Assembly: GCF_006345805.1 (NCBI RefSeq)
Contig: NC_043013.1
Location: 11,718,001 to 11,782,000, forward strand
Length of the DNA: 64,000 bases
Direction: 5' to 3'
DNA from: Octopus sinensis
Taxonomy: Eukaryota
The notes beneath the pieces were generated by a model. That model worked only from the letters and a program-made list of their open reading frames with translations. It searched no databases and was not told where the DNA came from. The position numbers were made by a program, and so were the translations under genes. Positions 10,410 through 56,729 of this stretch are shown here, one piece after another (positions within the stretch are counted from its first letter, which is position 1; every line of letters begins with the position of its first letter).

Positions 10410-10473
<64 letters not shown>

Positions 10474-10591: not shown

Positions 10592-10979
10592 AAGAAGAAG
10601 AAGAAGAAGAAGGACAACAACAACAACAACAACAATAACAGGTCACCCTTACCTGAATGAAATAGCTGTTATAATTTCTTAACAAAGATATAAATGTTCT
10701 TTGTAAAAGTATTTCAGCTTGTTTCTGGCAGACAGAAAGGCACGTGCCGAGAGAGGAATATATAAGAATCAATAACATTGTCATTAACACTAACACACGA
10801 AACATAATTTGACTACAAGGAAGGGAGCCACATGCTAGAAATAAGCATCTATATTAACCACAGTTTTTCTTCTCACTGGTAAGGGGTACGAGATTGAATT
10901 GCATTTTATCCATCTTGTGTCCGAGTCTCAACCAAAGACCTAGGGCATTATTATTATCATTATTAATATTATTATTATT

Positions 10980-11520
10980 ATTGAGTGAGAGAGCAGTGCA
11001 TGTCATCAATGTGACACTGGGGTAAAATATACGAAGCCCAATATACCCATCATGACTACCCATCTGATAAGGGTACACCAGGCACATGCATCACAACCAT
11101 ATGTGCGTGACATGGTGATCTCATATCAAGATAAACAGCACATGACCTTGCAGGTGGGGCCCAGTTAGAATTTTCTTCAGGTTGAGTAGCCCATCCCGCT
11201 CAAAAGGTCCCTGAATAAGGGTTCTTTAACGATGTTGAAAGAACCACCCATGTTCCCCGAGGTGAATTATTCAAACCCCAAAGAATCCCTCTCAACACAT
11301 GGCTATGATGCTCCCCCACTACTTCTGCTCGTGATCAGAGATGCACATATCGTCAGCCACTAAGGGACATGCTCAACTGGTTAAGGTCAAACAACTGACA
11401 AGCAAATCTGTGGTATTGAGCAGAATATTTGCTGTAGCCCATCTTTTATACCAAGACAAAACAATGTACATGATAACACTTCCAATCAGTTAAGATCAGA
11501 AGCCATGAGAGCCATTGCCT

Positions 11521-13282: not shown

Positions 13283-13337
<55 letters not shown>

Positions 13338-13340
13338 TTT

Positions 13341-14012
13341 ATTGAGTGAGAGAGCAGTGCATGCCATCAAAGTGACACTGGGGTAAAGAATACGAAGCCC
13401 AATATACCCATCATGACTACCCGTCTGATAAAGGTACACCAGGCACATGCATCACAACCATATGTACGCGACATGGTGATCTCATATCAAGATAAACAGC
13501 ACATGACCTTGCAGGTGGGGCCGAGTTAGAATTTTCTTCAGGTTGAGTAGCCCATCCCGCTCAAAAGGTCCCCGAATAAGGGTTGTTTAAGGATGTTGAA
13601 AGAACCACCCATGTTTCCCGAGGTGAATTATTCAAACCCCAAAGAATCCCTCTCAACACATGGCTATGATGCTCCCCCACTACTTCTGCTCGTGATCAGA
13701 GATGCACATATCGTCAGCCACTAAGGGACATGCTCAACTGGTTAAGGTCAAACAACTGGCAAGCAAATCTGTGGTATTGAGCAGATATTATTATTATTAT
13801 TATTTTATTATTATTACTATTATTATTATTGAGTGAGAGAGCAGTTCATGCCATCAAAGTTACACTGGGGTAAAGAATACGAAGCCCAATATACCCATCA
13901 TGACTACCCGTCTGATAAGGGTACACCAGGCACATGCATCACAACCATATGTGCGCGACATGGTGATCTCATATCAAGATAAACAGCACATGACCTTGCA
14001 GGTGGGACCCAG
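13341..14012 (-). mobile_element. Two more 5'-truncated copies of the (TAA)n-inserted element
   Basis: ~445-bp and ~185-bp copies colinear with 10980-11521, separated by (ATT)n. Confidence 0.8.
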
Positions 14013-14066
<54 letters not shown>

Positions 14067-14107
14067 CATCATTATTATTATTATTATTATTGTTATTACT
14101 ATTATTA

Positions 14108-14963
14108 TATGAAAACTCTCAAAATATTTTGTTTGCTATGATGGAAAGTCTCAGCTGTCCACATCCAGCAGACTAAGGGGACACTTGTATACTGGTCATG
14201 CTTCAAGAACCTTGCAAAAATTCTTGCAGTTCCAAGCAAAGCTGACTTTTGTAGGTGTTCTACCTTCACACTTGCACCAATCTTTTTCAGCCATGCTGGT
14301 AGTTGAGTGCTGATACTTCCAAGCGCACCAATTACTATTGTTATCACGTCTACTCTCTTCATTAACCACAACGTTCGTATTCCCCACTTTAAATCGTAGT
14401 AGGTGTCTAGGCCAATTGTAGCAATCTTCATTGTTATTGCCAGTTGTAAAAGACAACGGCCTCCCCCCTTTCTTGGCAGATAAAGTCGTTCTGTATCTGC
14501 CTTAGGGTGGTGCATTCTATGCATTGTCAACAGTTTTCGTATTTTTCTGTCGAGCTGACATATTTCAGTAATTGACCAGTTAACGATGTTGAAACTGTAA
14601 GTCACGACTGGTATGGCTAATGCATTGATCGTTTCGATCCTGTTTCTTGCATTCAGCTCTGTCTTGAGTATTGCTCTCACTCTTCGATAACATTCTCTCC
14701 TGATCCTTTCCTTCATCTCTGAATGCCTTATTCCGTCCCCTTCAATTACGCCTAGGTACTTGTAGCTCTCCGCTGGGTCTAGTTCTTTTATGACATTCTG
14801 CTGGTCAAGGTTAACGTTAGATGTTTCTGTCATTTTTCCTTTGATAAAGGTAGCTTTTGCACATTTATCGAGTCCGAATTGCATTTTGATGTCGTCACTG
14901 AATTGTTTGACTATCGCTAGTAAGCCCTTGAGTTGTTGGTCATTTTTTGCAAATATTTTTATC
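14108..14963 (-). mobile_element. R4/Dong-like non-LTR retrotransposon fragment (RT thumb + RLE C-terminus), 5'-truncated and internally deleted
   Basis: MQFGLDKCA, YKYLGV, LDRKIRKLLT..HHPKAD.ERLYLPRKGGGR then a jump at ~14400 to YDLKW.IR.LW, IVIGALG, LQKSALLGTARI; 3' end abuts (TAA)n, the established Dong target. Confidence 0.85.
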
Positions 14964-15059
14964 AAACATTTTATATCCGTACTGCGCGTCATTGAGCGGT
15001 TTTGAGAGAGGTATTAAGGCTCATTATTATTATCATTAATATTATTATTATTATCATCA

Positions 15060-15135: not shown

Positions 15136-16659
15136 GATGATCATCATCATCATCATTATTATTATTATATTACTTCTCAGAGCGCTCTGTATTGTTTACT
15201 CTGGTAGATTCTCTGAGAGCGGACAGCAGCTTGCTGTCAGAAGCCTTACAGTGTCTCTTTCGGTGCAATATAGCTTTGATACTTCGTTTTAGATTATTGT
15301 GGGAGACATTCAACATCCAAGTACCAATCTTAAAATCATAGCTGTCCGCTGCAGAACAGCTTTTGCGGCTTACTCTGCTCTCAATTCCGATTTCTCTGAT
15401 AAAATGACAATATTCGTTGAAGACGTCATTGAGCTGGGTTTTACGCAAAATATTTAACGGCCATTTTCTCGGTTGTACGCTCTCAGATAAAATTCGAGTT
15501 CGGTTTCGTCTTTCTTCATTTCGGGTTGATAAAATTACTTGTGTCAATGTAATCCACGTTGCTCCATGCTCTGTCTATAATTGTTGGCTTTGTGCAATAA
15601 TTTGAAAGAATCTAAAAGCATATTTAGTTAAAGAAATTTTACTTTCAAATTTCAAAATATGCCGATATCAGCTTTATCGTTCATATATCTTGGCGTCTAT
15701 AAATTTAATACCAATCAAAATCTGAGATTTATTATATGGAATGTTCTATTGACTAAAATATGTAGCTTATCTGCGTAGCTGAAAATTTATTTTGTTTCCT
15801 TACTAATTGTTTAGCCCTAGGTATGCTCTGAGTGGGTAGATCAATACTCAAAAGCGCTCAAGCCATGACCCTCCCATCCTACTCTCAGTCACTTTTTATT
15901 TATAACTTCATTATCTGTCCATTATGTCCATGTCTGTTGAAGATTAAAAATGTAATAGAGTTTTATAGATATCGCATTTTGTAATTATTATTGTAGCTGT
16001 TGTTATTGATGTGGTGGTGCTTGTGACAGTGGTAGTAGCGGTGATGTATGGTGAGATGAGACTTCTGCTTTTTAAAAGAGAGTTTCGGTTATTTATGGCT
16101 TGTGAATCCATCAGAGAATGTTACGCTTTTGATAGCAAAATGGAATTATTCATTATCATGATGATGGTAATGTAAGTACATCTACATACGTAACCGAAAC
16201 ACTGCGAGTTCTTTCTCTCATTACCAATGAAACCTCTTACTTTACTTAATTAAGTCACTCACATATCAGCGATATCAAACATACCTCTGAAAGAATGAAA
16301 TAGAAGATGTAATAGAGAAAGACGGAGAGAAAAAGGAGCAAGAAGATGATAGAGGAAGAGAGAGATAAAAGTGAGTTGTTTTCTATTGGGTTGCCTAACA
16401 TGCAACGTGACATCAATATCAGTCAGTAGGTTTTCATGTTCCTCAGTAGAACTATATGATCTGAAGATAAGCAGCAATTAGATAGCCAATGTTCCTCAAA
16501 TCATACTCTTTGGACTTTAGACAATGGGTAAGTTAGAAAATGTAAGACCGGGATTTGAACTCAAAATTTAAAGAGGGAATAATGCCGCTTGACATTTTGC
16601 CCAGCATACTAAAGAATATGCCTTAACAAGAATACGTCTTAACAAGAATAGTAATAACC

Positions 16660-17056
16660 CTTTCTTCTAAAGGCCAAAAATCTTAAATTTGTTTGGAAGG
16701 GATTAGCCGTTTACACCTATCCAAGTGCTTCACTGGTATTTAATTTATCGACCCCGAAAGGATGAAAGGCAAAGTCAGCCTTGGCGGAATTTGAACTCAG
16801 AATGTAAAGACAGACGAAATACCTATTTCTTTACTACCCACAATGGGCTAAACACAGAGAGGACAAACAAGGTCAGACAAACGGATTAAATCGATTATAT
16901 CGACACCAGTGCGTAACTGGTACTTAATTTATCGACCCCCGAAAGGATGAAAGGCAAAGTCGACCTCGGCGGAATTTGAACTCAGAACGTAGCGGCAGAC
17001 GAAATACCGCTACGCATTTCGCCCGCGTGCATATGATTCTGTCAGCTCGCTACCTT
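16660..17056 (-). mobile_element. Composite SINE A: Tx1-tailed unit followed by a standard-tailed unit
   Basis: Junction AAAGAAATA|GGTATTTCG at ~16823; the downstream unit ends in the standard GGCC...TAGAAGAAAGG tail. Another degenerate A copy at 17080-17282. Confidence 0.85.
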
Positions 17057-17422
17057 AAAAAATAATAATATTAATGATTTTTAATTTTGGCACAAGCCCA
17101 TAAACTTTGAGGTTGGGCTTTAGTCGATTACATCGATCTCAGTGCTCGACTGGGCCTCACTTTATCGACTCCGAGAGGATGAAAGGCAAGGTCGATCCCG
17201 GAGGAATTTGAACTCAGGATGTATAGGCAGACGAAATGTTGCTAAGCCTGGTGCGATAATGAGTCTGCCAGCACGCCGCTCTAACAATAATAATAATCGT
17301 AACAATAATTCTATAAAATGAAACGACTATGAGTGCAACAATAGCAACAAGAATACAGAATAACACCAAAGTAAAAGAAAAAATACAGTAACTGCAGCGC
17401 ACAATACATCACCACCACCACC

Positions 17423-24265: not shown

Positions 24266-24460
24266 TATCATTACTGCAACAGTAACTATCTTTAGCATAT
24301 CAGTTGTAGTTGTTGCTGTTACTGTTCTTAGAGTCCTTGCGGTAGTTATTTAGCCTCCAACCACCACCACCACCACCACAAACAATAACAACAATCCTTA
24401 ATCAGCCCAATCCCAGTACACGCGACACATGGTCCAAGACGTTTCTCACGTAGCAACGCA

Positions 24461-24836
24461 AGGCGGTGAGCTGGCAGAATCATAAGCACGCCGGGCGAAA
24501 TGCTTAGCGGTATTTCGTCTGTCGTTACGTTGTGAGTTCAAATTCCGCCGAGGTCGATAAATTAAGTACCAGTTACGCACTGGGGTTGATGTAATCGACT
24601 TAATACCTATGTCTGTCCTTGTTTGTCCCGTCTATGTTTAGCCCCTTGTGGGTAGTAAAGAATTAGATAGTTCGTCTGCCGTTACGTTCTGAGTTCAAAT
24701 TCCGCCGAGGTCGACTTTGCTTTTCATCCTTTCGGGGTCGATTAAATAAGTACCAGTCGATGTAATCAACTTAATCCCTTTCTCTTTCCTTGTTTGTCCT
24801 CTCTATGTTTAGCCCCCTGTGGGCAATAAAGAAATA
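24461..24836 (+). mobile_element. SINE type A Tx1-tailed dimer; first unit has a core deletion between GGTCGA repeats
   Basis: Head AAGGCGGTGAGCTGGCAG; two tails ending AAAGAATTA and AAAGAAATA. Confidence 0.85.
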
Positions 24837-25541: not shown

Positions 25542-26809
25542 TAATAATAATAATAATAATAATAACGATCAAGTAAAAGAGCAAAAAAAAATAAAAGAAA
25601 ATTAAAAGGAAATGGAAGAAGAAATGAGAAAAGAAGAGAAAAAGCTGCTGCTATCATAATTGAATTGCTCACAACACTGAATTTTGATATGGCAGTATAT
25701 GAAATGATATCTCGTGGAAAAATCATATCATTCATTTTGATATGATTAAGTGGTGTGTCATAAATTAGGAAGCATTTTATTTGGTCACTGAGTCGGATGT
25801 TCTATGATGTGGTTTGATACACTTTGTAATTTCTGACGGTTGGCAGGAAGGGCGGAGAAGGAAGAAAGGATGGAAGGAAGGAATGAAGGAAGGAAAGCTA
25901 TGTAGGGAAGAAACCTGTGAACGAAAGAAGACAGAACGAATGGAATGGTAAAATCAAAGAAGTGGAAAGAAAGAAAAGAAGGAAACATTGGCATCTAAGA
26001 AGGATGAAGTAAAAAATATTTAAATAAGTAATTGAGAAATAAATGAAGGAAAATGGAAAGACTGAAGGACATATGTGTTGAAGGAATTCAAGAAGGAAAA
26101 CTTAAGGAAAAGTTAAAGAGGTAAGATAAAAAAAGGAATAATGAATGGGGAAAGACAGAAAAGAGATAAATGAAGGAATGAAAGAAATAATGAAGTTATA
26201 AAAGGGGAATGTACAAAGAAAAAGTGAAAATAAAATGGAGAGTGAAAGAAGGAAGGAAAGCAAATAGGAAGAGATTAAAAGAAATGAAGAAAGTAAGAAA
26301 GAAAGAATGAATGAATGAAAGAGGAAAGGAAGAAAGACGACAAAATGCATAGCAATGCAAAATGAAAAAGGAAAGTAAAGAAGAAACAAAAGAATGGAAT
26401 GAATGAAATAGAATGAAAGAGTAACAGCCGAATTTAGGGAAACTGAATATGATGAATGAAAGGTTACTAAAATAAGATACGGGGGAAATGTGCCAAAAAA
26501 TAGTAAAAAACAATAAAATAAGAAAGAATGAAAAATTTAAATAAAATGAGAAAGACTATAAGACAAAGAAAGGAAAGGAAGAAAAGGAGTAGAAAGTAGC
26601 GGGAAATAAAAATACCAAGACAATACGAAAATTTTAGGAAAGAAATCAAAGAGATATTACTGAGTGTTATATGAGTATAGCTCTTGGGGTCCATAAAAGA
26701 AACACTTGTTGAATATTGGAGCAAGTGTAATCGACTTCCCTGAAATTGCGGTCCTTGTACTATACTTGTGCCACAATTTGAAACCAACGTTCGGGTGTAG
26801 AATGTATTG

Positions 26810-27203
26810 TCTATTCTAGGCACAAGGCCAGAAATTTTTGAGGAATGTCCCTATCAGTTAGATCGATTTCAGTAAGGAAACTGGTATTTAATTTATCGAC
26901 CCCGAAAAGATGAAAGGCAAAGTCGACCTCGTTGGGATTTGAACTCACAACGTAAAGACAGACGAAATATTTATTTCTTTACTACACACAAGAGGCTAAA
27001 CACAGAGAGGACAAACAAGGACAGACAAAGGGATTATTCGATTACATCGAACCCAGTGCGTAACTGGTACTTAATTCATCGACTCCGAAAGGATGAAAGG
27101 CAAAGTCGACCTCGTTGGAATTTGAACCTAGAACGTAAAGACAGACGAAATGCCGCTAGGCATTTCGCCCACGTGCTAACATTTCTGCCAGCTCGCCGCC
27201 TTA
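26810..27203 (-). mobile_element. Composite SINE A: Tx1-tailed unit + standard-tailed unit
   Basis: Junction AAAGAAATA|AATATTTCG at ~26971; both units share the CAACGAGG and TCTGTCTTTACG variants. Confidence 0.85.
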
Positions 27204-27674: not shown

Positions 27675-28194
27675 AATATTAATATGCTCGTAATTAAACC
27701 ACTAGGAAATTTTCCTGTGAATGAAACTAAGCTGAGGATCGAAGAGGTATTGAATACTTATCAGATGTATCTTACTCTTGCAAGTCATAAACAGAGAAGC
27801 AACGGGTTAGAAAAACTATGAGAAATTATACGATTGTACTAAATAGCGTATCTGTACATTCGCTTGTAGTGCGTACTGAGTTATTAATAAGCAGAGTGAC
27901 AGTGTGAATGTGGATAAATTGCAATTAACTTCGTATACATACGTTTCGATAATTGTAACTTCAATCTCACCGAGGTAGCAAACCTCACAATCATACAAGA
28001 ATGATATCTCTATGAATGAAACTAAATAACTAAATGTGGGAAACGAATTATTGCCTACTTATTGAATGTATCTACTCCGGTTAGTCGTAAAGAGAGAGGC
28101 AACTTAGAGCTGCTTAGAAGTAAAATGCGATTTTATTCAAAAGAATAACAATACATTCGTTGACAGCGTGTATTCAATGGTTACATTCTCTAGA

Positions 28195-28607
28195 GGTGGC
28201 GAGCTGGCAGAAACGTTAGCACGCCGGGCGAAATGCTTAGCGGTATTTCGTCTGCGTTACGTTGTGAGTTCAAATTCCGCCGAGGTCGACTTTGCCTTTC
28301 ATCCTTTCGGGGTCGATAAATTAAGTACCAGTTACGCACTGGGGTCGATATAATCGACTTAATACCTATGTCTGTCCTTGTTTGTCCCCTCTGTGTTTAG
28401 CCCCTTGTGGGTAATAAAGAAATAGGTATTTCGTCTGCGTTACGTTGTGAGTTCAAATTCCGCCGAGGTCGACTTTGCCTTTCATCCTTTTGGGGTCGAT
28501 AAATTAAGTACCAGTTACGCACTGGGGTCGATGTAATCGACTTAATACCTATGTCTGTCCCTGTTTGTCCTCCTCTGTGTTAGCCCCTTGTGGGTAATAA
28601 AGAAATA
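28195..28607 (+). mobile_element. SINE type A with Tx1-like tail, head-to-tail dimer
   Basis: Full unit plus a second unit starting at GGTATTTCG (28425); both end GCCCCTTGTGGGTAATAAAGAAATA. Perfect 16-bp TSD GGTTACATTCTCTAGA (28179-28194, 28608-28623). Confidence 0.92.
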
Positions 28608-30339
28608 GGTTACATTCTCTAGACAAATTGTATAAATTCACGTAATTAGGCTCAATAAACGTAGACCCATAAACAGTTTTACAAACAGGTAACAAAACGC
28701 TCGAGTTAAGACATGGGGATATTAAAGCAGGAAGAACCTCAGAACAGCTTGACTGGTTTCTGCCGTTATGGCGGTCTTAGTAAAATCGTTCACTCTCATT
28801 CGTTCTGTAAGATAGCGGAAGCTACTTCGAGCTACATCTGAAAACAAAACAAAAATGCAACTGCATGATATACGCCGCGAGGCTGAGTGATTATTTAATA
28901 AACGCACGCATGTGAACTCATCACGAATTTATTGATTTATTTTCATAATCTTTACTGAAAACAGACATACGATCGTTTATTACTGTTGCGGTTATTGTTG
29001 ATACGAGAATTGAGGTTGTTGGTTTGATACCGTTGATGTTTTCGTAGATTTTAGAGTTAGCTTCAGCTGTTGAAGAAACAGTAGTAGCTGTTTTTGTTGT
29101 TGTCTAAAGTTGTTGGTGTTGCTAAAGATGTTACTGTTGTTGGTGGTGCTGTTGTTGTTGTTGTTGTTACTCTAGTTTTATTTTTTTTCTCAATTTAGAC
29201 GTTCCAGTTTAGTTTTTCACTGTGTTGGTTACCGGAGTTGCTGTTTCCACTACTACGACTACGATTAGCGACGTCTTTGATCTTATAGTAGTAGTAGTAG
29301 TAGTAGTAGTAGTAGGAGGAGGAGGAGGAGGAGGAGGAGGAGTAGCAGTAGTAATAATAGTAGTGAGAGGAACAAGAAAAGAAGGAAGAACGTGAAGAAA
29401 AAGGGGAAAATAGAGAAAAAGTAGCAGATGATGATGATGATGACGATGATAATGATGATGATGAAGCAAGAAGAAGAAGAAGAAGACGAGAAGAAGAAGA
29501 AGAAAGAGATGACAATGAAGGAAGCTGAGGAGGAGGAGGAGGAGGAGACGAGAAGGAGGAGAAGAAGACGAGAAGGAGGAGAAGAAGACGAGAAGGATGG
29601 GTAGTAGTAGTAGTAGTAGTAGTAGTAACTGTTGTTGCTGTTGTTTATTTGTTTCCGACATTTGAATCTGGTTCTCAGAAACCAGTGGTTATTGAAGTCA
29701 GTTCCTACCACTCACACAACTTAAACTACACCTAACGTTGCTGTTCAAGTTCTCCATGTTCCTCTTCTTGAAAACATTAGTAGTATTAGTAATATTAGTA
29801 GCAGTTGCCGTTGTTTATCAATTTAGACGTTTCAGTATAATATTTCTTTATTTTATTTTATTTTGTTTTTCTCTCTGTTTTCTTTTTATTATATATTCCC
29901 TGAGACTTGCTTGTCAGAAATGCTGTCGAAAATGATTTTATTATTGTTGTTGTTTTTATTGTTTTTGTTGTTGTTTTTTTTTATGAATTTAGACGTTTGA
30001 AGATGTTTTTCATCGACTTGTTGTTAGTGTTGCTGTTTCAACTACTGCCAACACCGTTTGTTGTTGTAGTTGTTGTTGTAGTAGTTGTTGTCGCTACTGC
30101 TGTTGCTGAGGCGAATGTTTATCAGGTGAGACACTCGAAAATGTCTTTAGACATGTTCTAGCATTCACACTACTTTTTGATAGAGCCATCACCATTTCCA
30201 CTACTAATTTTACTAATACTACCACCACAACCACCACCAACACTGCTACTACTACTACCACTACTACTACTACTACTGACAATAATAATAATAGCACCAC
30301 AGTTATTATTAATTATTACTACTACCACTAATAATCTTT

Positions 30340-30744
30340 TCTACTATAAGCATAAGGCTTGAAATTTTCGGGAGGGTTACAGTCGATTACCTCAAGCCCC
30401 AGTACTCAACTGGTACTTATTTTATCGACCCTTAAAGGATGAAAGGCACATTCGACTCCGGTGGAATTTGAACTCAGAATATAGCGACGGCGAAAACACC
30501 TATTTCTTTACTACCTATTTCTTTACTACCTACAAGGGGCTAAACACAGAGAGGACAAAGACTGACAAACAGATGAAGTCGATTATATCGACGCCAGTGC
30601 GTAACTGGTACTTATTTAATCGACCCCGAAAGGATGAAAGGCAAAGTCGACCTCGGTGGAATTTGAACTCAGAACGTAGCGGCAGACAAAATACGGCTAC
30701 GCATTTCGCCCGGCGTGCTAACGATTCTGCCAGCTCGCCGCCTT
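30340..30744 (-). mobile_element. Composite SINE A: young Tx1-tailed unit upstream of an older standard-tailed unit
   Basis: Duplicated terminus GGTAGTAAAGAAATA-GGTAGTAAAGAAATA then GGTGTTTTCG; the downstream unit is more diverged. Confidence 0.85.
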
Positions 30745-31061
30745 AACCACTACCATTAATAATTCTAATACTACAACCATCACGACCAAAGAAACCACCA
30801 CCACTACTACTGCTGATACTTTTTCTAGCAAGGAAATCGGGACTGATTTAAATGTAGATCAAAAATCAGATATCCTCAATCTGTGTCCCTTTCGACAGAA
30901 AAAACACCACATGGATTAAAATACTCTCAATTATTCTTAAGGTAGTACGAGAAAAGAACTAGATTTCCTTGCTGACTTGTAACAATTTGAATAACAGAGC
31001 ATAAAAGCTCTCTCGACGGATAATCATTTTGTTGTTGTAATAATGGCGGTGACAACAGCGA

Positions 31062-31102
<41 letters not shown>

Positions 31103-31141
31103 AAAGTAATAGTAATAGTAGTAGTAGTAGTAGCAGTAGTG

Positions 31142-31172
<31 letters not shown>

Positions 31173-31610
31173 TAGTAGTAGCAGCAGAAGCAGCAGCAGC
31201 AGTAGTAGTAGTAGTAGTAGTAGTAGTAGTTGCTGATGCTGTTTTTGTTGTTACTCTGCAGTTGTTGCTGTTGTTGGAATTTATTAATCTATACCCGCGA
31301 TTCTTGATCAAAACGTGAAGATCCCTGAGAAAATATAGAGGAATTGGCGAGTGAAAATACTTGGTGGAACTGGAAAGCTCTTTACCATTGCACTTGAGGA
31401 AAGGCGGACTGTCAGTTAAAACGCAATCACTTCTGGGATTTTTTATCGATTAAGATCATTAGTAGTCAAAGTGTTTTTACCACAAACTGTGACGTCATCC
31501 ATGAAAACTGCTTCTCTTACTCCTTCTTTCAAGGAATCATTCCCAGCTCATTGTTTACATTTCGGCTTCTAATGGTTTATTTTATCCAGTTTGGTATTTA
31601 TCAGAGGGTG

Positions 31611-32438
31611 AAGGCGGCGAGCTGGCAGAATCGTTAGCACGCCGGGCGAAATGCGTAGCCGTATTTCGTCTGCCGTTACGTCCTGAGTTCAAATTCCGCC
31701 GAGGTCGACTTTGCCTTTCATCCTTTCGTGGTTGATAAATTAAGTACCATCTACCCACTGGAGGTCGATATAATCGACTTAATACCTATGTCTGTCCTTG
31801 TTTGTCCTCTCTGTGTTTAGCCCCTTCGGGGTAGTAAAGAAATAGGTATTTCGTCTGCCGCTGCGTTCTGAGTTCAAATTCCGCCGAGGTCGACTTTGCC
31901 TTTCATCCTTTCGGGGTTGATAAATTAAAGTACCATCTACGCACTGGGGGTCGATGTAATCGACTTAATACCTATGTCTGTCCTTGTTTGTCCTCTCTGT
32001 GTTTAGCCCCTTGTGGGCTGAGTTCAAATTCCGCCTGTGTTTAGCCCCTTGTGGGTAGTAAAGAAATAGGTATTTCGTCTGCCGCTGCGTTCTGAGTTCA
32101 AATTCCGCCGAGGTCGACTTTGCCTTTCATCCTTTCGGGGTTGATAAATTAAGTACCATCTACGCACTGGGGGTCGATGTAATCGACTTAATACCTATGT
32201 CTGTCTTTGTTTGTCCTCTCTATGTTTAGCCCCTTGTGGGTAGTAAAGAAATAGGTATTTCGTCTGCGGCTACGTTCTGAGTTCAAATTCCGCGGAGGTC
32301 GACTTTGCCTTTTATCCTTTCGGGGTTGATAAATTAAGTACCATCTACGCACTGGGGGCCGATGTAATCGACTTAATACCTATGTCTGTCCTTGTTTGTC
32401 CTCTCTGTGTTTAGCCCCTTGTGGGTAGTAAAGAAATA
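31611..32438 (+). mobile_element. SINE type A with Tx1-like tail, tetramer (185-bp period)
   Basis: Junctions GAAATA|GGTATTTCG at 31844/5, 32068/9 and 32253/4; 15-bp TSD GGTATTTAT(C/G)AGAGG at 31593-31607 and 32439-32453; small internal rearrangement at ~32018-32035. Confidence 0.92.
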
Positions 32439-33860
32439 GGTATTTATGAGAGGCTTATCTGGTGTTCGAACACGGTTTTCTACATTTAGTCTCCCATTTA
32501 GTGACGAATTTAATGAAGCTAATGCAAAAATTAATATTTAATGCTCATGTTATTGCATGAATTGTCTTATTATAGAAGACTAAATTAATTTTCACTTTTA
32601 AGTGTGGTTGTGCTGGATTCCGCATTCGTAAAAATGTTGCACGAAAACAATAGGAAAGAGTTTAAAAATATTGGATTAAACACTAGACGTGCGCATGTGT
32701 GAGATACAAATATGCGTGAAGTGTTTTGCTCAAGAACACAACGCGTCGCCCGGTCCAGGAATCGAAACCGCAATCTTACGATCATGATGCTGACACACTA
32801 ACCGCTAAGCGAAGCGCCTCCACACAGGTCTCTCCTGTGTGTACAATTTTGTAAACCCTATTTGTAAATGAAACACATGTAATAGTGAATGAATAATAAA
32901 AAAAAATTTCCCAATCTTTTGTTTTGAAATGTAATTACATCGCAAAAAAAATGTACAAGAAAATTTATCGCCAAGGTGCGGTGCAGTGCAATTGAACCTC
33001 AAACCTCGTAGTTGCAAAGCAAATTTCCAAAACATACAAAAATGTAGAATAATGATGAAAAGTACTTCAGTTGTGCCGAGTATGTTTTTCTATACGCAGG
33101 GAGCGGTTAACTACATCACCGAATGTATTATTTTCCAAAAGGAACCAGAATGATGTAAGGAGATTGGACTACTATTTCTAGCAGATACAAAAATCACTTA
33201 GAGTCTCTCCCATTTCTTGGGGATGATCGTAGTGGTAATGGCACTAGTAATGTTGTTGACTTATCTGCTGTTATGTATCAATTATAGTCTAAGTAAATTT
33301 TAAGTAACTTACGGTATATGGTTAAGAAATCTCTCTCGAGAACACTTCTCCAAACACTGGATTATAATATATTACCGGGGGAGATATCAGCCTATGTTAT
33401 TACTTAGTAGCAGTGGGAAACAAACAAATCTACCTCGCCCAAAAATAAAATCAGTCTCATATGACGAGAAAACGCTTATAAATTTGTGCGTGTCTGCCTG
33501 TCTGTGTGTGTGCGTGAGTGTGCATGTGTCTCTGTGTGTGTTTTTGTGCCACACAGTCATAGATGTTAAATACAGTTCCTTTTAAAATATGATTAAGTAT
33601 ATCAACATAACATTTGCTATTAGGGAACTCAATGATAAGCAGAGGAAAATTTGATGCAAATTTCATCATAGCAGTGACTTCGTATTTTACCTAATGGTTT
33701 ACCAAAGCAATATATATGCAATCATACGCATACGCACACGCAAATTCATTCGGAAACACACATATATGCATACATAAATGAATTGACAATAGATATTAAT
33801 TCTGATGCATTTGTATACACACACAGACATATGCATGTACATATATATATGTATATAAGT

Positions 33861-34099: not shown

Positions 34100-34508
34100 A
34101 CACACACACACCACACACACACACACATATATATATATACAACGGGTTTATTTCAGTTTCCGTCTACCAAATCCATTCACAAGGCTTTGGCCGGCCCGAG
34201 GCTATCGTAGAAGACATTTCCCCAAGGTGTCACGTAGTGGGACTGAACCTGGAACCATGTGGTTGGTTAGCAAGCTACTTTATTTCATATAATTTGCCAT
34301 TTAGGCATTTACAAAGAGGGGACAAACAAGGACAGACAAATATAAAGAGTGAAGTAGCTTAACACAGTTACAATTTTCGAATGAAATTACGGATAAGATT
34401 ATAAGCAATGAATTTTACGAAGGCAATGTTTAAAAATATTAATGATCATGTCGAAGGACGGACATCCAGCCATCCGGGTAGAACCTTTACTTTCTGATCC
34501 GGTCACAC

Positions 34509-37500
34509 TTACCTGGTGCCAAACATACCCATCTTGTATGCCACAGGCTTCCATCTTTTCACAAACATATCTCGTGACAGACACCTCTTCTCCAGCCTGA
34601 TTTTGCTACTGAGGTGGTAACTAAAAAAGTTAATCAACCCCTGGCCGGAGACAAAGGTGCCTGTCACTATACCTTTCGTACGCGTCTTCCATACTGTTTC
34701 TTTCAGTATGGCTACTACACAGAAAAAACAAGCCTTTCTTTCCCTGTTAAGGAAAGGGGGCGGCACAATCTCGATGATAGACTCAGCTGATAGCTGTACT
34801 CTTCCCATCACTGACAACAGTTGTTCAACAAAAGCTATCAGTCCCGATAACTCCGGACACTCCACGAATGCGTGCAAGACGGTCTCCCTATCCTGCTCAC
34901 ATCGCGGGCATGTCGGCGAGACGGCACTACCGTGCCTTGACAGCTTGTCGCGAACAGGTAAAGCCGCACGGAACACTGCCAGGCAGGGATTTCTGGTAAT
35001 TATCCAGATACCCCGGCCCGAACGTCCTCCGGAACAGGTTGACCAACTGATTTTCATCGTATCCCAGGGTCTCCCCCAAGGCGTCTTCGGACTTAATCTC
35101 CACTAACCCGCTATAGAAATCCGTGGTGGAACTCCTGTTGCCGGCGTTGCCCACCCGAGATAGTAGCTGGAGCGCCTGACGGCACTCCAAATGCCATTCA
35201 CTCAGTTTAGGTCTCCGCTTGATCCATGCACCGTTAGGGATGTTAACTGGGGAAGGTAGAACCGGACGTGCGGTGACCACACCTGCTCTCCATCCAGGTA
35301 AAGCCAGAGGTGCCTCAACCTTAACGCGAGTTTTCGCATCCTCAGCCAAGGCATCCCTAGCCCACCCTTTAGCGGTTTCTGGCAGCAGACAGAGCGCTTT
35401 ACAAGTGGCTTTCCTCCTTTCCACAAAAATCGGAAAAGGATTCTCTCCAACTTGTTCAGCCACAAATCGGGGCAAGGCACCACGGTCAGACGGTAGGTGA
35501 TTACTGATGCTATAAACATCTGCACCACCTCCGCCTTCCCTAGCAGGGATAACGCCCGCCCAGACCAGGTCTGGGTTAGAGCGGTCACCTTGTTGGCCAC
35601 CTCACTCCAATTTTTCTCAATCTGGAGGTCTGGCCCGAACCAGACTCCGAGCAGCTTAACAGGACCTTCCGTCCAACGCCCTACGACGTTATTGGACGGC
35701 ATCGGCTTGCCCCTCCAGGTGCCGAGTTGCAAACCGACCGACTTGTCCTTGTTAACCTTTGCTCCTGCCACCGCCTCGTAGCATTTGATGGCCTCTTCCA
35801 CCACTGGAAGCTGGCCTTCGTCTGCCACGATGATGGAGGTGTCATCCGCATACGCCGTAGCTCCTCTTCCACACCATAGATCATGCGGCGCGCCCCCTAG
35901 TGCCTCCAACTTCCGCAGCAAAGGCTCAAGAGCCAATACGTATAGGAGCGAGGACAGGGGACACCCTTGACGAACTGAACGCTCGATCCTGAACGGCTTC
36001 GAAAAGGAACCGTTCACCTTGACTACAGACTCGATGTCGCTATACAAAGCAGCGATCCAACCTCGAAAGGTCGGGCCTAGGCCAGCCTCTCCGAGGACCG
36101 CCGCCAGGTACCGATGGTCGACCCTATCAAATGCTTTGGACTGGTCTAAATGTACCAGTGCTCCCCCTACGCCAGAAAGCTTCCCCACCCTCTCTAAGGA
36201 GTAGCGTATAAGGTGGAGATTGTCGTGGATCGTTCTGCCGGGGATAGCGCACGTTTGCGCTTCCCCGACAAGTTTGTCCACGACCCGCGCCAACCTTTTT
36301 GCTAGCACCTTGGCCAGAATCTTTAACTCTGTGTTTAACAGAGTTATGGGCCTGAAGTTCCCTATCTCGTCCCCCTTGTTCGGGTCCTTCCTGATCAATG
36401 TCACCGCCCCCCGGCTCGCAGACTTGGGAATTCTCCCATTCTGCTGCCAGTTGGCGTAGACGCTAGCCAGCAGGTGCCCGAACAAGTCTGGCATACTTCT
36501 ATAAAATTCATAGGGCAGACCATCGAGACCCGGCGACTTCTCCCCGGGGCACTTGCCCAACACCTCGATTACTTCCTCGGCTGTGATTGGCCCTACACAG
36601 CACTCAGCCTCTCGTGTCGAGAGGCGCGGGCCACCAGACAGGAAGTCCCTAAGGGCCTCACCATGATCCAGCGTCCCGCACCTCCCGAACAACTCGGCGA
36701 AGTGCTTGTGAAGTGCCTCACACATCTCGTCCCGCTTCTTGATCGTGCATCCGTTTTCATCAACAAGAGACCCAATTGTGGCATCGTTTCCACGCTGTGT
36801 TTCTATCGTACGGGCCCATCCGGCAACATTAATTCCCTCACGGCCCAATGCTCGTACTTTAGCCCGGACTCTACATCCCTCATGTTTGGTTTTGAGGTGA
36901 CGGTCTAATGCCGTTCTCGCCGCTAAAATGTGAGATGCAGAGCCCAACCTCAACGCCTCCTCTAAGTTCTTAACTAGTTGCCCTTCTATTCTAGCCCTAT
37001 CTAGTCTTAGTTGTTTACTAAATCTAATGGACTCGAATCGAATGGCTCTTTTGAGGGTGAACCACCACCGGTTATTAACCACGGCTCCGGTTAACGCCCT
37101 CTGCACTAACACCTTAATCCGGCTACGGTATGCCTCGCGTGTCAAAATAGACTTGTTCAGCTTCCAGTAGCCGGTTCCTATCTTAAGTGTGCTATCTATG
37201 TCCAGTCTACACGTGACCATTCTATGGTCAGTATAGGGCACCTGGACGAGCTGTGGACAACTAAAACTAGACTTATCTCTAGTTCTTATCACTATCCTGT
37301 CTAGATAAGACTTGAACCTTCCGTCGCCACTCATCCAGGTCCACTCTGGGACGTTCGGATGGTCAAGTCTGTAACGATCTGCCAGCTGAAACCGCTTAAG
37401 CAGATCCACGAGACGTGAGTTCACTTTCCTATAGATCGAGCCAACGCTATCGATGTGTACGTCAACGATAGCATTAAAGTCCCCTAATATCACTAAAGTC

Positions 37501-37901
37501 TTCGACGTCACGAGAAAGCCCTCTAGGCGCCGATAAAAATCAGTTTGGAAACCTCTAGCACAAGGTGCATAGAGTCCGATCAACCTGAAGGCCTTACTGC
37601 TGTATGTCACATCAAGGACGACCAGTCCACCTTCTGGGTCTACATAGACTGTACTTGTCTGTAGAGCCAAGTCTTTACGGATCAGTACCACTACGCCCCC
37701 TCGCCCTCCGGTCTGGCCAGGAGACATGATTTTCTCGTAGCCATTCAGGAGAGGCGAGAAGGTTTGTAGGCTGTCCAGCTTGGTCTCTGTAGCAACCATC
37801 ACATGTATATCATGTGATCTGAGGTCGTCGAGGAAACAAGCCTGCTTCCACTTCGAACTCAGACCACGCACATTTAAACAACCAAGGTTAAGCGAAGCCA
37901 T
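34509..37901 (-). CDS. Tx1 ORF2p, APE endonuclease / reverse transcriptase, frameshifted near the C-terminus
   Basis: APE motifs LNVRGL, ATETK, LGDFNA, SYLDRI, TDH; RT motifs KSPGLDGLP, NFRPITLLN, LDQSKAFDRVDH, VRQGCPLS, YADD, KLLGVWF. Frame changes at ~35233 and ~34985; C-terminal CPRC...H...C (34509-35057 frame). Confidence 0.92.
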
Positions 37902-37952
37902 TACAAAAGTAAAAGTTCTACTTACATTTCGTTGGAGAGGTGGGGGCCGATC

Positions 37953-39317
37953 TCACCACACGTTTGGGGCCCCTTTCTCCTCTTTCTTCAGATAGTCCGG
38001 CAAGTTCGCGATATGCCGGATGGCGTTTGGGTGTCTGTCTTTTAATTGTTTGAACGTTGTTTCCGCAATCCACGCGTGTCTATTTCGATCTTTGTATTTG
38101 TTGTACAGTCTTGCTGACTGATGCTGAACCACAATATCGTTTATGTATTTGTCTTGTGTGTCGAATTCAATTAATATGAGTTCATTTTCTTTTTTGTCTT
38201 CTTTTTCTGGGCCAGTTGAGCGGGATTTTTTTTTCCGTGTCTGTGGTGTGTTTTTGTTTTTATTATTTTTTGTAGGGGATGTGGACGGGGATGCTGCACG
38301 AATTCTTTTACGAATTGGTGTAAATCCCCCCTCTGATACCTCCATGGTATCGTCTGGGGTAGCAATAGTTTGTTCGGTAGGCGCCGCAGTTTTTAGGGGG
38401 GTGGGAGGTTTTAATAGTGTAGGGGTTTGTGAGTGCGAGGGCTGGGGTTTTTCTTCAGTCTGTTTTGGGGTTGGCACCGTAACAGCAGGAGTGGGATTTT
38501 TTGTTTTTGTAGGGGTATGTGTGTTTGCAAGGGTAGGGACTTTTTTATTATCTGAGGGGCCTGGTGTCTGCGGTTTCTTTTGCTTGTCTGGACAGTCTAC
38601 ACGAATGTGGCCCTTTTTGCCGCAGGCGTAACAGGTGGGTTTTCGGCCTTCGACCTGTACCCTGAGGGCTACGTTCTCGCCCACGAGCACCCTCTCAGGA
38701 AGGAGCTGCAGGTCCTCCGCTGTTCCTTGAATTAATATATTAATGTTACGCCCGAGCCAAAATAGAGGGGCAGAGCATGTTACTTGTAGTATTTTTATTT
38801 TGTCCGCCCTTTTATATAACAGGGCGGCCACTACCTCTACCGGATCTACTTCCGGCGGGGCTTCTACAATCCTGACCCGGGACGTCCTGCGTCTCCTATA
38901 GCTTGGGAAAAGTACCACCTCCTTGATTTTTAGGGGGTTCACAGAATGCCCGCGGGCCATTTCTTCCCCCGAGAAGCGGACATCCACAGTGCCATATTCC
39001 CGTCCCCTGGCGACGTACACGATGTCCTTCCAAATCGGGGAGAGGCATTTCTCGATGGTGCTTTTTTCAAAGTGTTTGAACCTTCTGCTTTGTGGACAGA
39101 AAGTTTTAAACACTACGGTCCGCTTCTCGGTCTCCACCATACTGGCGGAGGGTGATATTTTAACATCACCACCCTCCTCTTGCATTCTTTTAAATAGCTC
39201 GACGAGCTGGTTGACATCGATGTCAATGTTCTCGGTAGCCAATGCGGCTACCGCAGAAAATTTTTTAACATTGCTCTCCTCAAGAGCACTACTTTCGTGA
39301 ATAATTTCAACAGACAT
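37953..39317 (-). CDS. Tx1 ORF1p, gag-like nucleic-acid chaperone with zinc knuckle
   Basis: Open frame of ~454 aa from ATG 39317 (MSVEIIHES); CX2CX4HX4C knuckle CYACGKKGHIRVDC followed by a Pro/Thr/Lys-rich low-complexity region. Confidence 0.9.
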   Translation of the reverse strand: MSVEIIHESSALEESNVKKFSAVAALATENIDIDVNQLVELFKRMQEEGGDVKISPSASMVETEKRTVVFKTFCPQSRRFKHFEKSTIEKCLSPIWKDIVYVARGREYGTVDVRFSGEEMARGHSVNPLKIKEVVLFPSYRRRRTSRVRIVEAPPEVDPVEVVAALLYKRADKIKILQVTCSAPLFWLGRNINILIQGTAEDLQLLPERVLVGENVALRVQVEGRKPTCYACGKKGHIRVDCPDKQKKPQTPGPSDNKKVPTLANTHTPTKTKNPTPAVTVPTPKQTEEKPQPSHSQTPTLLKPPTPLKTAAPTEQTIATPDDTMEVSEGGFTPIRKRIRAASPSTSPTKNNKNKNTPQTRKKKSRSTGPEKEDKKENELILIEFDTQDKYINDIVVQHQSARLYNKYKDRNRHAWIAETTFKQLKDRHPNAIRHIANLPDYLKKEEKGAPNVW

Positions 39318-39754
39318 TATTCTGTTGAAATTAGACAACACAAAAATTACGAGTATTGGTTTCCCACAAAACTGGGAAACCTATAGAAAGTTTTTCTTCC
39401 AAAGTAGTTCAAAAAAGCAGTTCAAAAATTCCAATTCCCACCCCCATTCGGGGGAGGGGCACGAAAATAGTCTGGCAGGACTATATATAGTCACGTAAAT
39501 AAAAAGCCACAGTGGCTAACAGTTCAACGGTAAGAAATTATTCAATTATTTCCCGGTAAATCCGGAGAACAAGACAGTTCAGCAACGTTTAAAGGCAAAT
39601 TTTCAGTAGTAGGAATTCAACAATTAACAACACAGCAAAACTCTTACCGGGAAGAAAACGCGTCCAAACCGTAGTACGGTAAGCAAAGTCACTCTTCTGT
39701 CAGTGAGGTTAGCAAGCTACTTACCACACAGCCACTCCTGCGCCTAAAATATTG

Positions 39755-41032: not shown

Positions 41033-41448
41033 GGTTTCAAATTTTGACACTAGGCCAGCAGTTTTAGGGAAGAGGCCAGGTAAAATAAATCAACCCATGC
41101 TGAAATAATACATATTTTATCGACCCTGAAATTCAACCTTGGCAGATTTTGAACTGAGAACGTAGCGACGAATGACAGACCACTAAACATCTTGCCAAAC
41201 GTGCTAACGATTCTTATTTCTTTATTGCCCACATGGGGTTAAACATAGAGGGGACAAACAAGGACAGACAAATGTATTAAGTCGATGATATCGACCCCAG
41301 TGCGTAACTGGTACTTATTTAATCGACCCCAAAAGGATGAAAGGCAAAGTCGACCTCGGCGGAATTTGAATTCAGAACGTAACGGCAGACGAAATACGGC
41401 TACGCATTTCGCCCGGCGTGCTAACGATTCTGCCAGCTCACAAGCTTA
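41033..41448 (-). mobile_element. Composite SINE A: Tx1-tailed unit + older standard-tailed unit
   Basis: Junction AAAGAAATA|AGAATCGTTAGC at ~41215; direct repeat ACTAGAAATATT flanks the composite. Confidence 0.82.
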
Positions 41449-46126: not shown

Positions 46127-46321
46127 TTAAGAAACATTAACAAAGTAAGCTAGGAACTATATGAATAAATAAGTAAATAAATAACGAAATACATATATGA
46201 ATATAAAAAAATATAAAATAAAAAATAATTATATTTTCAGAGAACAATGTTATCAGGAGTGTTTTCAAGTGAAAGAAAACAATGTTTTGAAATGAAGAGG
46301 CAAAGAAGAAAACTTATATAC

Positions 46322-46352
<31 letters not shown>

Positions 46353-46392
46353 CGTATATATATATATATATGTGCATGAATACACACATATA

Positions 46393-46423
<31 letters not shown>

Positions 46424-46425
46424 GC

Positions 46426-46457
<32 letters not shown>

Positions 46458-47443
46458 TCCGATATATACTAACTACACACAAACACACACATACACACTT
46501 ATATGTGTATATACTGATGAAATAGCAAACACAAAATGAACCACGTCGACGACAACAATAACTAGAACGACAGCAACAACAATAACGAAGAGAACAAAGG
46601 AAAGAGAAGCAAGAGCTATGACAAAGCACTTTTGAGCATGAAAACTTCTGAAAAAATACATACAACAAAAAGTTATCTACAATAAACTTATCTCAAAAAT
46701 ACGAAAAAAAAAAGTCCTTAAAGTATAATATATAATAAATATAGATAAAAATAATATAAGAAATGAATTGAAAAAGGAATTTTGATCAATAGATTGATAA
46801 ACCGAAGAAGAAGAAGAATCAAATAAATTATCCAAAAAGGGCAAGGGTAACAAAGAACGTCGACATAAACACATCAACGAAGTTATACATGCAATATAAG
46901 GAACGTAGCGAGACATAACTTGGGATGAATATACAAATACACATACATACATACATACATACATACATACATACACATACATACATACATAAATACATAC
47001 ATGCATGCTTGTGTGTATGTGAGTATGTGTCTATGTGTGTATCTATGCGTATGCGTGTTTGTGTATGTATGTATGTAAGTAAGCATACAGACGGAAATAT
47101 ATACACGCGCACGCATATATCTATCGAAATATAATCTATGGGAGCAGACATGAATGCATAATTATACAAAGCCGCATATATCCATACGTATTTACATATA
47201 TATACACATAGTTATACAAAATATAAACTCACGCACACATGTAACAGAGGGACTCGCTAATATGTGTGTTTGTGTGCGTGCATGCCTCTGTGTGTGTGCG
47301 TGCGTGTCTGTGTGTGTGCGTGCGTGTCTGCGTGTGTGCGTGCATGTTTGCGTGTGAACGGTTTAAAACTGGAACACACACCTTTAAACATTTAATTATA
47401 CAAGAAATACATATCCTATATATATATATATAATATATATATA

Positions 47444-47542
<99 letters not shown>

Positions 47543-48471
47543 CGATATATACTAACTACACACAAACACACACATAACACTTATATGTGTATATACTGAT
47601 GAAATAGCAAACACAAAATGAACCACGTCGACGACAACAATAACTAGAACGACAGCAACAACAATAACGAGAGAACAAAGGAAAGAGAAGCAAGAGCTAT
47701 GACAAAGCACTTTTGAGCATGAAAACTTCTGAAAAAATACATACAACAAAAGTTATCTACAATAAACTTATCTCAAAAATACGAAAAAAAAAAGTCCTTA
47801 AAGTATAATATATAATAAATATAGATAAAAATAATATAAGAAATGAATTGAAAAAGGAATTTTGATCAATAGATTGATAAACCGAAGAAGAATCAAATAA
47901 ATTATCCAAAAAGGGCAAGGGTAACAAAGAACGTCGACATAAACACATCAACGAAGTTATACATGCAATATAAGGAACGTAGCGAGACATAACTTGGGAT
48001 GAATATACAAATACACATACATACATACATACATACATACATACATACATACATACATACATACATAAATACATACATGCATGCTTGTGTGTATGTGAGT
48101 ATGTGTCTATGTGTGTATCTATGCGTATGCGTGTTTGTGTATGTATGTATGTAAGTAAGCATACAGACGGAAATATATACACGCGCACGCATATAATCTA
48201 TCGAAATATAATCTATGGGAGCAGACATGAATGCATAATTATACAAAGCCGCATATATCCATACGTATTTACATATATATACACATAGTTATACAAAATA
48301 TAAACTCACGCACACATGTAACAGAGGGACTCGCTAATATGTGTGTTTGTGTGCGTGCATGCCTCTGTGTGTGTGCGTGCGTGTCTGTGTGTGTGCGTGC
48401 ATGTTTGCGTGTGAACGGTTAAAAACTGGAACACACACCTTTAAACATTTAATTATACAAGAAATACATAT

Positions 48472-48476
<5 letters not shown>
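46458..48476 (+). repeat. Tandem duplication of ~0.95 kb of unique + microsatellite sequence (46458-47418 and 47540-48476)
   Basis: Near-identical copies differing mainly by small indels, separated by (TA)n. Confidence 0.95.
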
Positions 48477-48512
<36 letters not shown>

Positions 48513-48613
48513 TATATATATATAATATATATATATATATACATATATATATAACATAATATATACATATATGTATTATTACATATATATATTATGTATG
48601 TATTATTGTATGA

Positions 48614-56500: not shown

Positions 56501-56729
56501 AGGCGAGCTGGCAGAAACGTTAGCACACCGGGCGAAATGCTTACCGGTATTACGTCTGCCGTTACGTTCTGAGTTCAAATTCCGCCGAGGTCGACTTTGC
56601 CTTTCAGCCTTTCGGGGTCGATAAATTAAGTACCAGTTACGCACTGGGGTCGATGTAATCGACTTAATCCGTTTGTCTGTCCTTGTTTGTCCCCTCTGTG
56701 TTTGGCCCCTTATGGGTAGTAAAGAAATA
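56501..56729 (+). mobile_element. SINE type A Tx1-tailed monomer nested in an old minus-strand SINE B (56330-56815)
   Basis: Intact head, core and Tx1-like tail; flanks TGTCAAGCGGTGAT and GACGAACACAAAC continue the SINE B sequence. Confidence 0.85.

Follow-up and report, generated by a model that had tools for sequence, protein, structure and literature searches.

Tail-to-head composites in a SINE family of Octopus sinensis and their possible origin by insertion into the heads of sibling copies

Described arrays and target-preferring retroelements

The crocodilian SINEU and its partner Tx1-Mar (Kojima 2015, PMC4494074) form, according to the accessible text of that paper, a TE-targeting Tx1/SINE pair in which two hotspots are used by different subfamilies and tandems are produced by sequential insertion. 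A SINE family identified in a 64 kb stretch of Octopus sinensis contig NC_043013.1 (hereafter the window) is similar in that it would share a partner's preference for target sites within another repeat and has two hotspots. However, the crocodilian target is a Mariner element, and its tandems consist of complete copies with a TSD between them, whereas in the octopus the family's own head would be the target and the join is headless and seamless. The same text describes other APE-type LINEs preferring multicopy targets, namely Xenopus Tx1L, which inserts into Tx1D, Keno, which inserts into U2, and Kibi/Koshi, which insert into microsatellites; for the LINE present in the window the target is a tRNA-like SINE head, a single copy from which specificity is not demonstrable.

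In Scapharca broughtonii, arrays of the type TSD-(SINE)n-TSD contain one full tRNA head, followed by units that have a common truncation point within the head (Martelossi et al. 2024, PMC11481361). The octopus arrays likewise have one head, headless repeats and one TSD. Within the accessible sections of that description, internal tails are truncated and unequal TSD recombination is suggested, whereas in the octopus the tails are complete and subfamilies are mixed at the junctions; these sections contain no target preference or partner evidence. The squamate SINE-derived satellites (sSat) consist of tandem units shorter than the SINE and have many independent origins (Vassetzky et al. 2023, PMC10702118). 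Their units span varied SINE parts and can number hundreds of copies, and the part of the paper available contains no fixed tail-to-head junction or target preference. The longest octopus array comprises four units, two of them middle ones, as compared with the sSat cut-off of at least four middle monomers.

Metazoan non-LTR retrozymes are 150-450 bp tandem units, sometimes with a TSD, which carry a type I hammerhead and have demonstrated circRNAs (Cervera and de la Pena 2020, PMC7229834); their partners are treated in a 2026 preprint (10.64898/2026.07.22.740005). As far as the accessible text goes, retrozymes are a natural precedent for the formation of concatemers through circular RNA, one of the two mechanisms proposed in an earlier sequence-only reading of the locus, but the octopus SINE differs from them by its Pol III-like head, its LINE tail and the fact that no hammerhead core was found. 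For L1, microhomology at 5' junctions and target-site deletion are documented (review PMC10760644). The octopus composites resemble L1 in that the cDNA 5' end would be resolved on a homologous target, sometimes with loss of target bases, a process which appears rare for L1 in the accessible part of the review and apparently usual at one site here. The literature used for comparison also included PMC4824008 and PMC4758252.

No description of the junction reported below, or of a SINE targeting its own head, was found in the openly accessible literature covered, and an earlier description may exist. Within that scope, what appears new is the proposed self-targeting, which would link a known array architecture with known TE-targeting Tx1/SINE pairs. 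The reading favoured here, with a probability of roughly 0.6, is that target-primed insertion with a sequence preference places new copies in SINE heads, that their 5' end is resolved through homology, and that local expansion follows.

The SINE family, its junctions and the 31593 array

One SINE family accounts for 33 matches and 9.7% of the window bases. Its copies are short, non-coding and dispersed, and share a head and a body, while the tails are of two kinds, A and B. In A-tail copies the tail stops ahead of ATT-like tracts, and identity to the reference unit is mostly 70-85%. Copies with a B tail terminate in GAAATA, are mostly 86-95% identical to that unit, and comprise two subtypes, B1 (GGGCAATAAAG) and B2 (GGGTA[G/A]TAAAG). 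TSDs are present at five of the nine B-containing loci. The central body may resemble that of MetaSINEs or another central-domain superfamily, but a text search for its motif brought up nothing relevant. The head of unit 1 in the 31593 array contains the B-box-like GAGTTCAAATTCC, one base off the strict pattern, and an A-box pattern match occurs at 31623 but not in the 28193 allele. The loop of the head hairpin, previously termed anticodon-like, is so by position only; ARAGORN identified no tRNA genes. The one locus retrieved by a core pattern (L001) has only about 33 core bases in common and was rejected as a different element.

The head is predicted to fold into a hairpin with a 12-13 bp stem and a 4-nt UAGC loop (z about -3). 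The hairpin proposed from sequence alone was therefore recovered by folding, but the junction base, head position 50, is the first base of the 3' arm at the edge of the UAGC loop and does not lie in mid-loop. The closing pair covaries among 16 heads (U-G, G-C, C-G and A-U). The C allele at position 50 compensates the G at 31655, keeping the hairpin and removing the first G of the GGTATTT site; this compensatory allele is found in three of the nine first units and makes up about 18% of the depth in run X12. The head G allele and the A allele at column 162 occur together in four of four first units versus one of five (p=0.048). A-to-I editing was considered as the origin of the A/G dimorphisms and set aside, since free A-tail copies mostly have G at column 162 and A therefore looks derived.

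Tail-first joining to a fixed spot in the head is a real, recurrent feature, and is confirmed. The exact junction GAAATAGGTATTTC is present at 16823 (minus strand), 28425, 31845, 32069 and 32254, and decayed forms are present at 26971 and 30500 (both minus strand) and at 24666, which gives eight junctions at the six loci originally reported. A junction search allowing up to two mismatches returned 14 strand-matches versus 1.14 expected; the near-palindromic junction scores on both strands, so that these correspond to seven places, one of which is the 3' TSD. Eight of the 12 B2 3' ends are joined to head position 50 (GGTATTT) of another copy, two enter GGT-starting TSDs, one enters a 15-nt tail-end repeat starting GGTAG, and one (56729) enters unrelated sequence. 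None of the three B1 ends is located at position 50, and one is at position 17. The downstream partners at the junction loci have A tails at three loci, a B1 tail at one and B2 tails at two, and are of differing ages, often older; three of the eight junctions (24665, 26971 and 30500) are on decayed sites, a point against strict recognition of the motif. The hairpin said to be rebuilt at the junction (GAAATA GG TATTTC) is weak and has a 5-bp AU-rich stem with a z of -2.1 in 31 nt, but the signal is lost in 61 nt (z 0.05) and at 28424 (z 0.24).

Table 1. Features of the SINE loci and of the LINE in the window
Feature	Coordinates	Strand	Remarks
5' TSD copy of the array	31593..31607	+	15 bp, starts GGTATTT; pairs with 32439..32453, 1 mismatch
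Unit 1, full SINE	31611..31844	+	tRNA-like head, central body, LINE-derived tail ending GAAATA
Head hairpin of unit 1	31643..31672	+	13-bp stem, UAGC loop 31656-31659, head position 50 = 31660 (C allele)
Unit 2, headless	31845..32068	+	tail broken at 32017, 17-nt B-box patch 32018-32034, then restarted 34-nt tail
Unit 3, headless	32069..32253	+	185 nt
Unit 4, headless	32254..32438	+	185 nt
3' TSD copy of the array	32439..32453	+	
Dimer	28179..28623	+	exact 16-bp TSD (28179-28194 / 28608-28623, starts GGT), full unit 28195-28424, junction 28425, headless unit to 28607
B2 unit on A-tail body	16655..17056	-	older-looking head, joined at 16823 to the A-tail copy's body; 13 bases common to both sides
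B2 unit on B1-tail body	24460..24835	+	decayed junction at 24666; the B1-tail body is the more diverged part
B2 unit on A-tail body	26805..27202	-	joined at 26971; 9-bp outer TSD
B2 unit on old A-tail body	30340..30744	-	young head, 15-nt tail-end repeat, joined at 30500; 15-bp outer TSD (1 mismatch, low-complexity context)
B1 unit nested in old A-tail copy	41035..41447	-	at head position 17; exact 15-bp duplication 41431-41417 / 41214-41200; 12-bp outer TSD
Free B2 monomer	56502..56729	+	3' flank without GGT start, no TSD found: counter-example
Full-length L1/Tx1-group LINE	34281..39706	-	zinc knuckle in ORF1; APE endonuclease and RT in ORF2; frameshifts before zf-RVT; ends GAAATA
LINE 5' TSD copy	39707..39722	-	exact 16 bp, in head of second tRNA-like SINE family
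LINE 3' TSD copy	34265..34280	-	followed by remainder of interrupted second-family SINE

At 26971, 30500 and 41215 the entire composite lies between outer TSDs, which adjoin the A tail; no outer TSD was found at 16823, 24460, 9743 and 56502. The proposal that whole arrays sit inside a single TSD holds for the loci at 31593 and 28179; the outer TSD of the 31593 array begins with GGTATTT, as had been noted. At 16823 the head has 8 differences in 49 positions versus 8 in 186 for the body (Fisher p=0.007), and the head at 30500 is young, with 1 difference in 49. In the 26971 composite both parts carry a private change of two bases, situated some 40 nt beyond the site. At 24665, 26971 and 30500 the bases after the junction mismatch the upstream copy of the site, and no simple short TSD is visible; at these three loci the head must therefore have been replaced, or target bases deleted, in the course of joining, unless conversion acted later. 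The composite at 41215 has a B1 unit with 90% identity to the reference nested in an A copy with 73%, and the first 16 bases of head are diverged. This composite (at 41033 in the earlier account) does not use the position-50 junction and is joined at head position 17, which represents a second hotspot with its own 15-bp duplication. The position-17 joint (28423/4 to 28209) was also detected in 12 contigs of run X12.

The private variants claimed for the 31593 array were recovered as four alignment columns common to all four units and absent from the 10 other B units. In the 28195 dimer, a 1-base deletion is likewise private (0/12 others in the window), but TTGTGAG also occurs at 24460, in the 26971 remainder and in about 20% of the X12 contig depth. 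The within- versus between-array phylogeny gave a divided answer: the 31593 array is the only starred clade among 14 units (97/91), while neither dimer forms a clade, the units of 28194 grouping in 8% of bootstrap trees and those of 24460 in 0%, with the first unit on the shorter branch; the distances of 28194_2 are inflated by about 7 misaligned columns in the alignment. Within the 31593 array the distances are stepwise (3/172, 6-7/171 and 10-12/171), yet the private changes are compatible with a star tree (p 0.21 and 0.053). Two sites, columns 66 and 162, set unit 1 apart from units 2-4; both are dimorphic across the family, and in both arrays column 162 is A in unit 1 and G in the later units. 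Independent insertions from a genome-wide pool do not account for the four shared columns of this clade. The array has the appearance of a mosaic of two parental haplotypes that have a 29-base tract in common; conversion, template switching or a multimeric source may each have produced it. Runs of T4 in the arrays are limited to 32310 and 28488, and the first units have no T4 terminator.

It is extremely improbable that the array at 31593 was created by misassembly of a repeat-rich region. The odd patch in unit 2 would be compatible with such an error, and no reads were placed on the locus itself, but the units differ among themselves by 2-7%, a TSD is present, and the junction occurs at five other loci and in independent runs. 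Tandem duplication at the DNA level, through microhomology between the GGT(ATTT) after the tail and the GGTATTT in the head, is an unlikely origin of the junctions, even though the flank and the head at 31593 have GTATTT in common, with the junction reading as the G of the flank and then the CG of the head, the array distances are stepwise, and slippage would fit the 17-nt patch as well as the repeat of 15 nt of tail at 30515. Duplication cannot produce the four loci at which a B tail is followed by the body of an A-tail or B1 copy, just three bases of homology are available at 28194, the GGT flanks would still lack a reason, and both changes between unit 1 and units 2-4 fall at the family-dimorphic columns. 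Tandem duplication is accepted as a secondary step and not as the origin.

The L1/Tx1-group LINE and target preference

The LINE of the window contains the Pfam domains PF03372 (APE), PF00078 (RT), PF13966 (zf-RVT) and, in ORF1, PF00098 (zf-CCHC, E 2e-5). A CCHC knuckle in ORF1 is a feature of the Tx1 clade. The best solved relative is human L1 ORF2p (E 3e-66 versus 4e-20 for R2) and the nearest named homologue is from Argonauta hians (51% identity over 57% of the query). The name Tx1 does not occur among the 53 homologues, the 6 clusters or the Atlas rows, and sequence comparison supports membership at the level of the L1/Tx1 group only. When the 3' end of the LINE was compared with the core of 13 SINE B tails, the best match was 29/30 and the global score 51.5, versus a maximum of 43.5 in 2000 shuffles. 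The insertion of the LINE, with its exact 16-bp TSD, interrupts the head of a member of a second SINE family, free copies of which are located at about 2190, 20770 and 53870; this is one copy (n=1), from which specificity is not inferable. The tail match and the insertion into a SINE head suggest that GAAATA was inherited from a LINE, and that such machinery inserts into SINE heads. However, the last 25 nt of the LINE and its own target differ from those of B2, suggesting that it is a sister of the partner rather than the exact partner. SINE tail patterns had no match in the viral, metagenome and prokaryote contigs searched.

Both free TSDs start with GGT in the upstream copy, and these bases therefore predate the insertion; a GGT start is found in two of the three free B2 flanks (p 3e-4). 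Among the read runs, a flank in X23 starts with GGTATT (9 reads) and one in X19 with GGTAT (1 contig), only downstream sides being seen, and one X23 locus (6 reads) lacks the GGT start. In all five site types with a defined boundary, a pyrimidine precedes the boundary and two purines follow it (post hoc, p about 2e-5). The window contains GGTATTT 14 times within the family, junction-made copies counted, and 11 times elsewhere. As about half of these sites are in the family, a moderate 7-base preference would send about half of the insertions into siblings. Such a preference alone, whether from the endonuclease or from RNA-target pairing, would give the observed pattern, and special self-recognition would be unneeded.

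In run X12 there are 905 contigs that extend past an end of the reference stretch, and since the depth at the left end is zero these contigs carry the junction. The summed depth is 4.6 million at 28417, drops to 2.2 million at 28426 and is 1.25 million in the interval 28430-28438. By a very rough estimate, between a quarter and a half of the X12 tails continue into the junction, these values being depth and not copy number. The 15 joints listed of 61 comprise 8 at the main junction (59 contigs), 2 at the second site, one 67-nt tandem and 4 others. Among the 12 listed of 216 rows, the letters right after the X12 junction vary and include A-type alleles. In X23, 50 reads that probably come from a single locus contain a 67-nt tandem made up of a truncated tail and a 13-nt spacer, which corresponds to head positions 50-62 and looks like a visible TSD. 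Of the two 1.9-Gb runs X22 and X23, the former yielded 16 matching reads and the latter 208, too sparse and clumped for a histogram, and X19 yielded two contigs.

The variety of sequence downstream of the junction bears on the possibility that Pol III reads through a small number of dimeric or multimeric master loci and that the transcripts are retrotransposed in one piece, so that the junction is inherited and RNA extending into GGUAUUU primes at GGT-starting targets. A single TSD around entire arrays, the first units without a terminator and the A-then-G pattern of column 162 in both arrays are in keeping with such masters, and the 31593 clade would fit a multimeric source. Nevertheless, this origin is rather unlikely, given that the downstream partners belong to three tail classes of varied ages, that the letters after the X12 junction are varied, and that the second site has its own duplication at 41215; many masters would be needed, and each junction would still have to be made once. 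Descent of all arrays from one dimeric master, named in the sequence-only reading as the outcome that would overturn it, is not what was found, the downstream partners differing in subfamily and age.

Origin of the composites and arrays

Of the two mechanisms originally put forward, the re-targeting of SINE heads by a Tx1 endonuclease survives in a broader form. It is favoured by the LINE inserted in a SINE head with a TSD, by the duplication at 41215, by the old head at 16823 and by the GGT-starting free TSDs, but the attribution to Tx1 extends only to the L1/Tx1 group. The SINE tail is in common with an L1/Tx1-group LINE, and the endonuclease of the partner likely nicks just before GGT(ATTT). 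B2 elements land at pre-existing GGT-starting sites, as seen at the two free TSDs, and sibling heads would be hit frequently. The cDNA would then anneal to the target's own head or overhang, generating the order head, new body, old body, an anatomy observed at 41215 and 16823, and the likely homologous pairing of the 5' end would leave no second head in the composite. Homology-joined L1 and Alu chimeras exist. Every junction would recreate GGTATTTCG and thereby be re-targetable. Once two units are present, the array is likely to grow, and to be homogenised in part, through unequal exchange, slippage and conversion, as may have occurred for units 2-4 at 31593. Pairing of the end of a read-through RNA with the target may, more speculatively, add to the site preference.

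The other original mechanism, in which cleavage of the RNA at the edge of the loop is followed by circularisation, or reverse transcriptase re-copies the RNA or jumps templates, would give concatemers in one event and is improbable. The tail end GAAAUA is able to base-pair with the UAUUUC directly beyond the site, the site itself borders a loop with a covarying closing pair, the star tree for the 31593 array is not rejected, and the patch in unit 2 resembles template switching. However, GGT is already present in the upstream TSDs and is thus a property of the target, young-on-old composites are not predicted by circularisation, GAAATA also ends the LINE at an unrelated target, and only one of the three B-on-B arrays is a clade. 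The hammerhead core CUGANGA has no matches on either strand of both arrays, and an Rfam search of 28000-32600 with E up to 5 gave no ribozyme, the matches being microsatellite or chance. The circular fold (-36.8 kcal/mol) has no unusual stability, shuffled sequences giving -37.2 +/- 3.8 kcal/mol, with 108/200 as good. On present sequence evidence the circular RNA model is unsupported, and it would not be needed for most loci.

Target-primed insertion into heads could be extended to a SINE homing to its own family, which is doubtful. In that case read-through RNA ending in the GGUAUUUCG of the next unit would pair with nicked sibling heads, so that junctions would breed junctions and old copies would be overwritten with young heads; the compensatory head allele would possibly be an escape mutation in an intra-family arms race, and the process might be a general route from SINE to array, including the bivalve arrays.

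In the O. vulgaris assembly SINEs make up 11.6%, and most of the recently active ones are unclassified (PMC13282606). Composites of the kind described here distort the building of SINE consensus sequences and age estimates. Arrays with one head and headless units are known in bivalves and reptiles, and a tested origin for them was not found in the literature covered. If the favoured reading is true, scattered SINEs would be converted to tandem arrays without circular RNA, through preference for a motif that they carry themselves and homology-resolved joining, and the nucleation of satellites from SINEs would become testable.

Insertion sites and alleles of the SINE head

Head position 17 is a second recurrent insertion site, distinct from the GGTATTT target at position 50, and its user is the B1 subtype of the GAAATA-ending tail (41200-41447, minus strand). 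The same site is found in sequencing run X12, in which position 28424 is joined to 28209 (window numbering). A compensatory head allele (heads at 31655/31660, 30744 and 41447), in which G-C replaces U-G and the hairpin is kept, lacks the initial G of that target and accounts for approximately 18% of the X12 depth.

Stacked copies and tail rearrangements

Stacking takes another, distinct form in the head-to-tail runs of A-type copies, where the ATT-like tail of one copy is followed by the head of the next. Two SINE copies are arranged head to head at 61931/61961.

In run X23, the joint 28437 to 28371 (same numbering) produces a tandem of 67 nt that consists of a truncated tail and 13 target-site bases, and which may represent a mini-satellite or recurrent insertion of truncated copies. 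A templated patch of B-box sequence lies within a SINE tail at 32018-32034, and a contig of run X19 (record 9) carries a distinct tail duplication, some 30 nt long, which restarts in the same region. Outside the window, a metagenome contig (L001, 798-831, minus strand) has about 33 bases of the SINE central domain in common, while the element is otherwise different.

LINEs and other repeats

Repeats and coding remnants in the window
Feature	Position	Strand	Details
Head-to-tail runs of A-type SINE copies	10040-10420, 16655-17282, 61170-61931	-	
L1/Tx1-group LINE, full-length	34281-39706	-	ORF2 part open over 916 codons; frameshifts C-terminal
302-codon frame	14105-15013	-	flanked by (TAA)n tracts
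Pif1 helicase 2B-domain fragment	55410-55925	+	PF21530, E 2e-12
Direct duplication, ~1.1-1.2 kb	46317-47541 / 47397-48593		94% identity; microsatellite-rich
Direct repeat, 483 bp	10947-11429 / 13308-13789		96% identity

The full-length LINE, flanked by an exact 16-bp TSD, interrupts a SINE head that belongs to a second tRNA-like family. The 302-codon frame gave no match in a Pfam search at E 0.01; from its motifs, we take it to resemble the C-terminal portion of Dong/R4-type LINEs. The Pif1 fragment is possibly a Helitron remnant.
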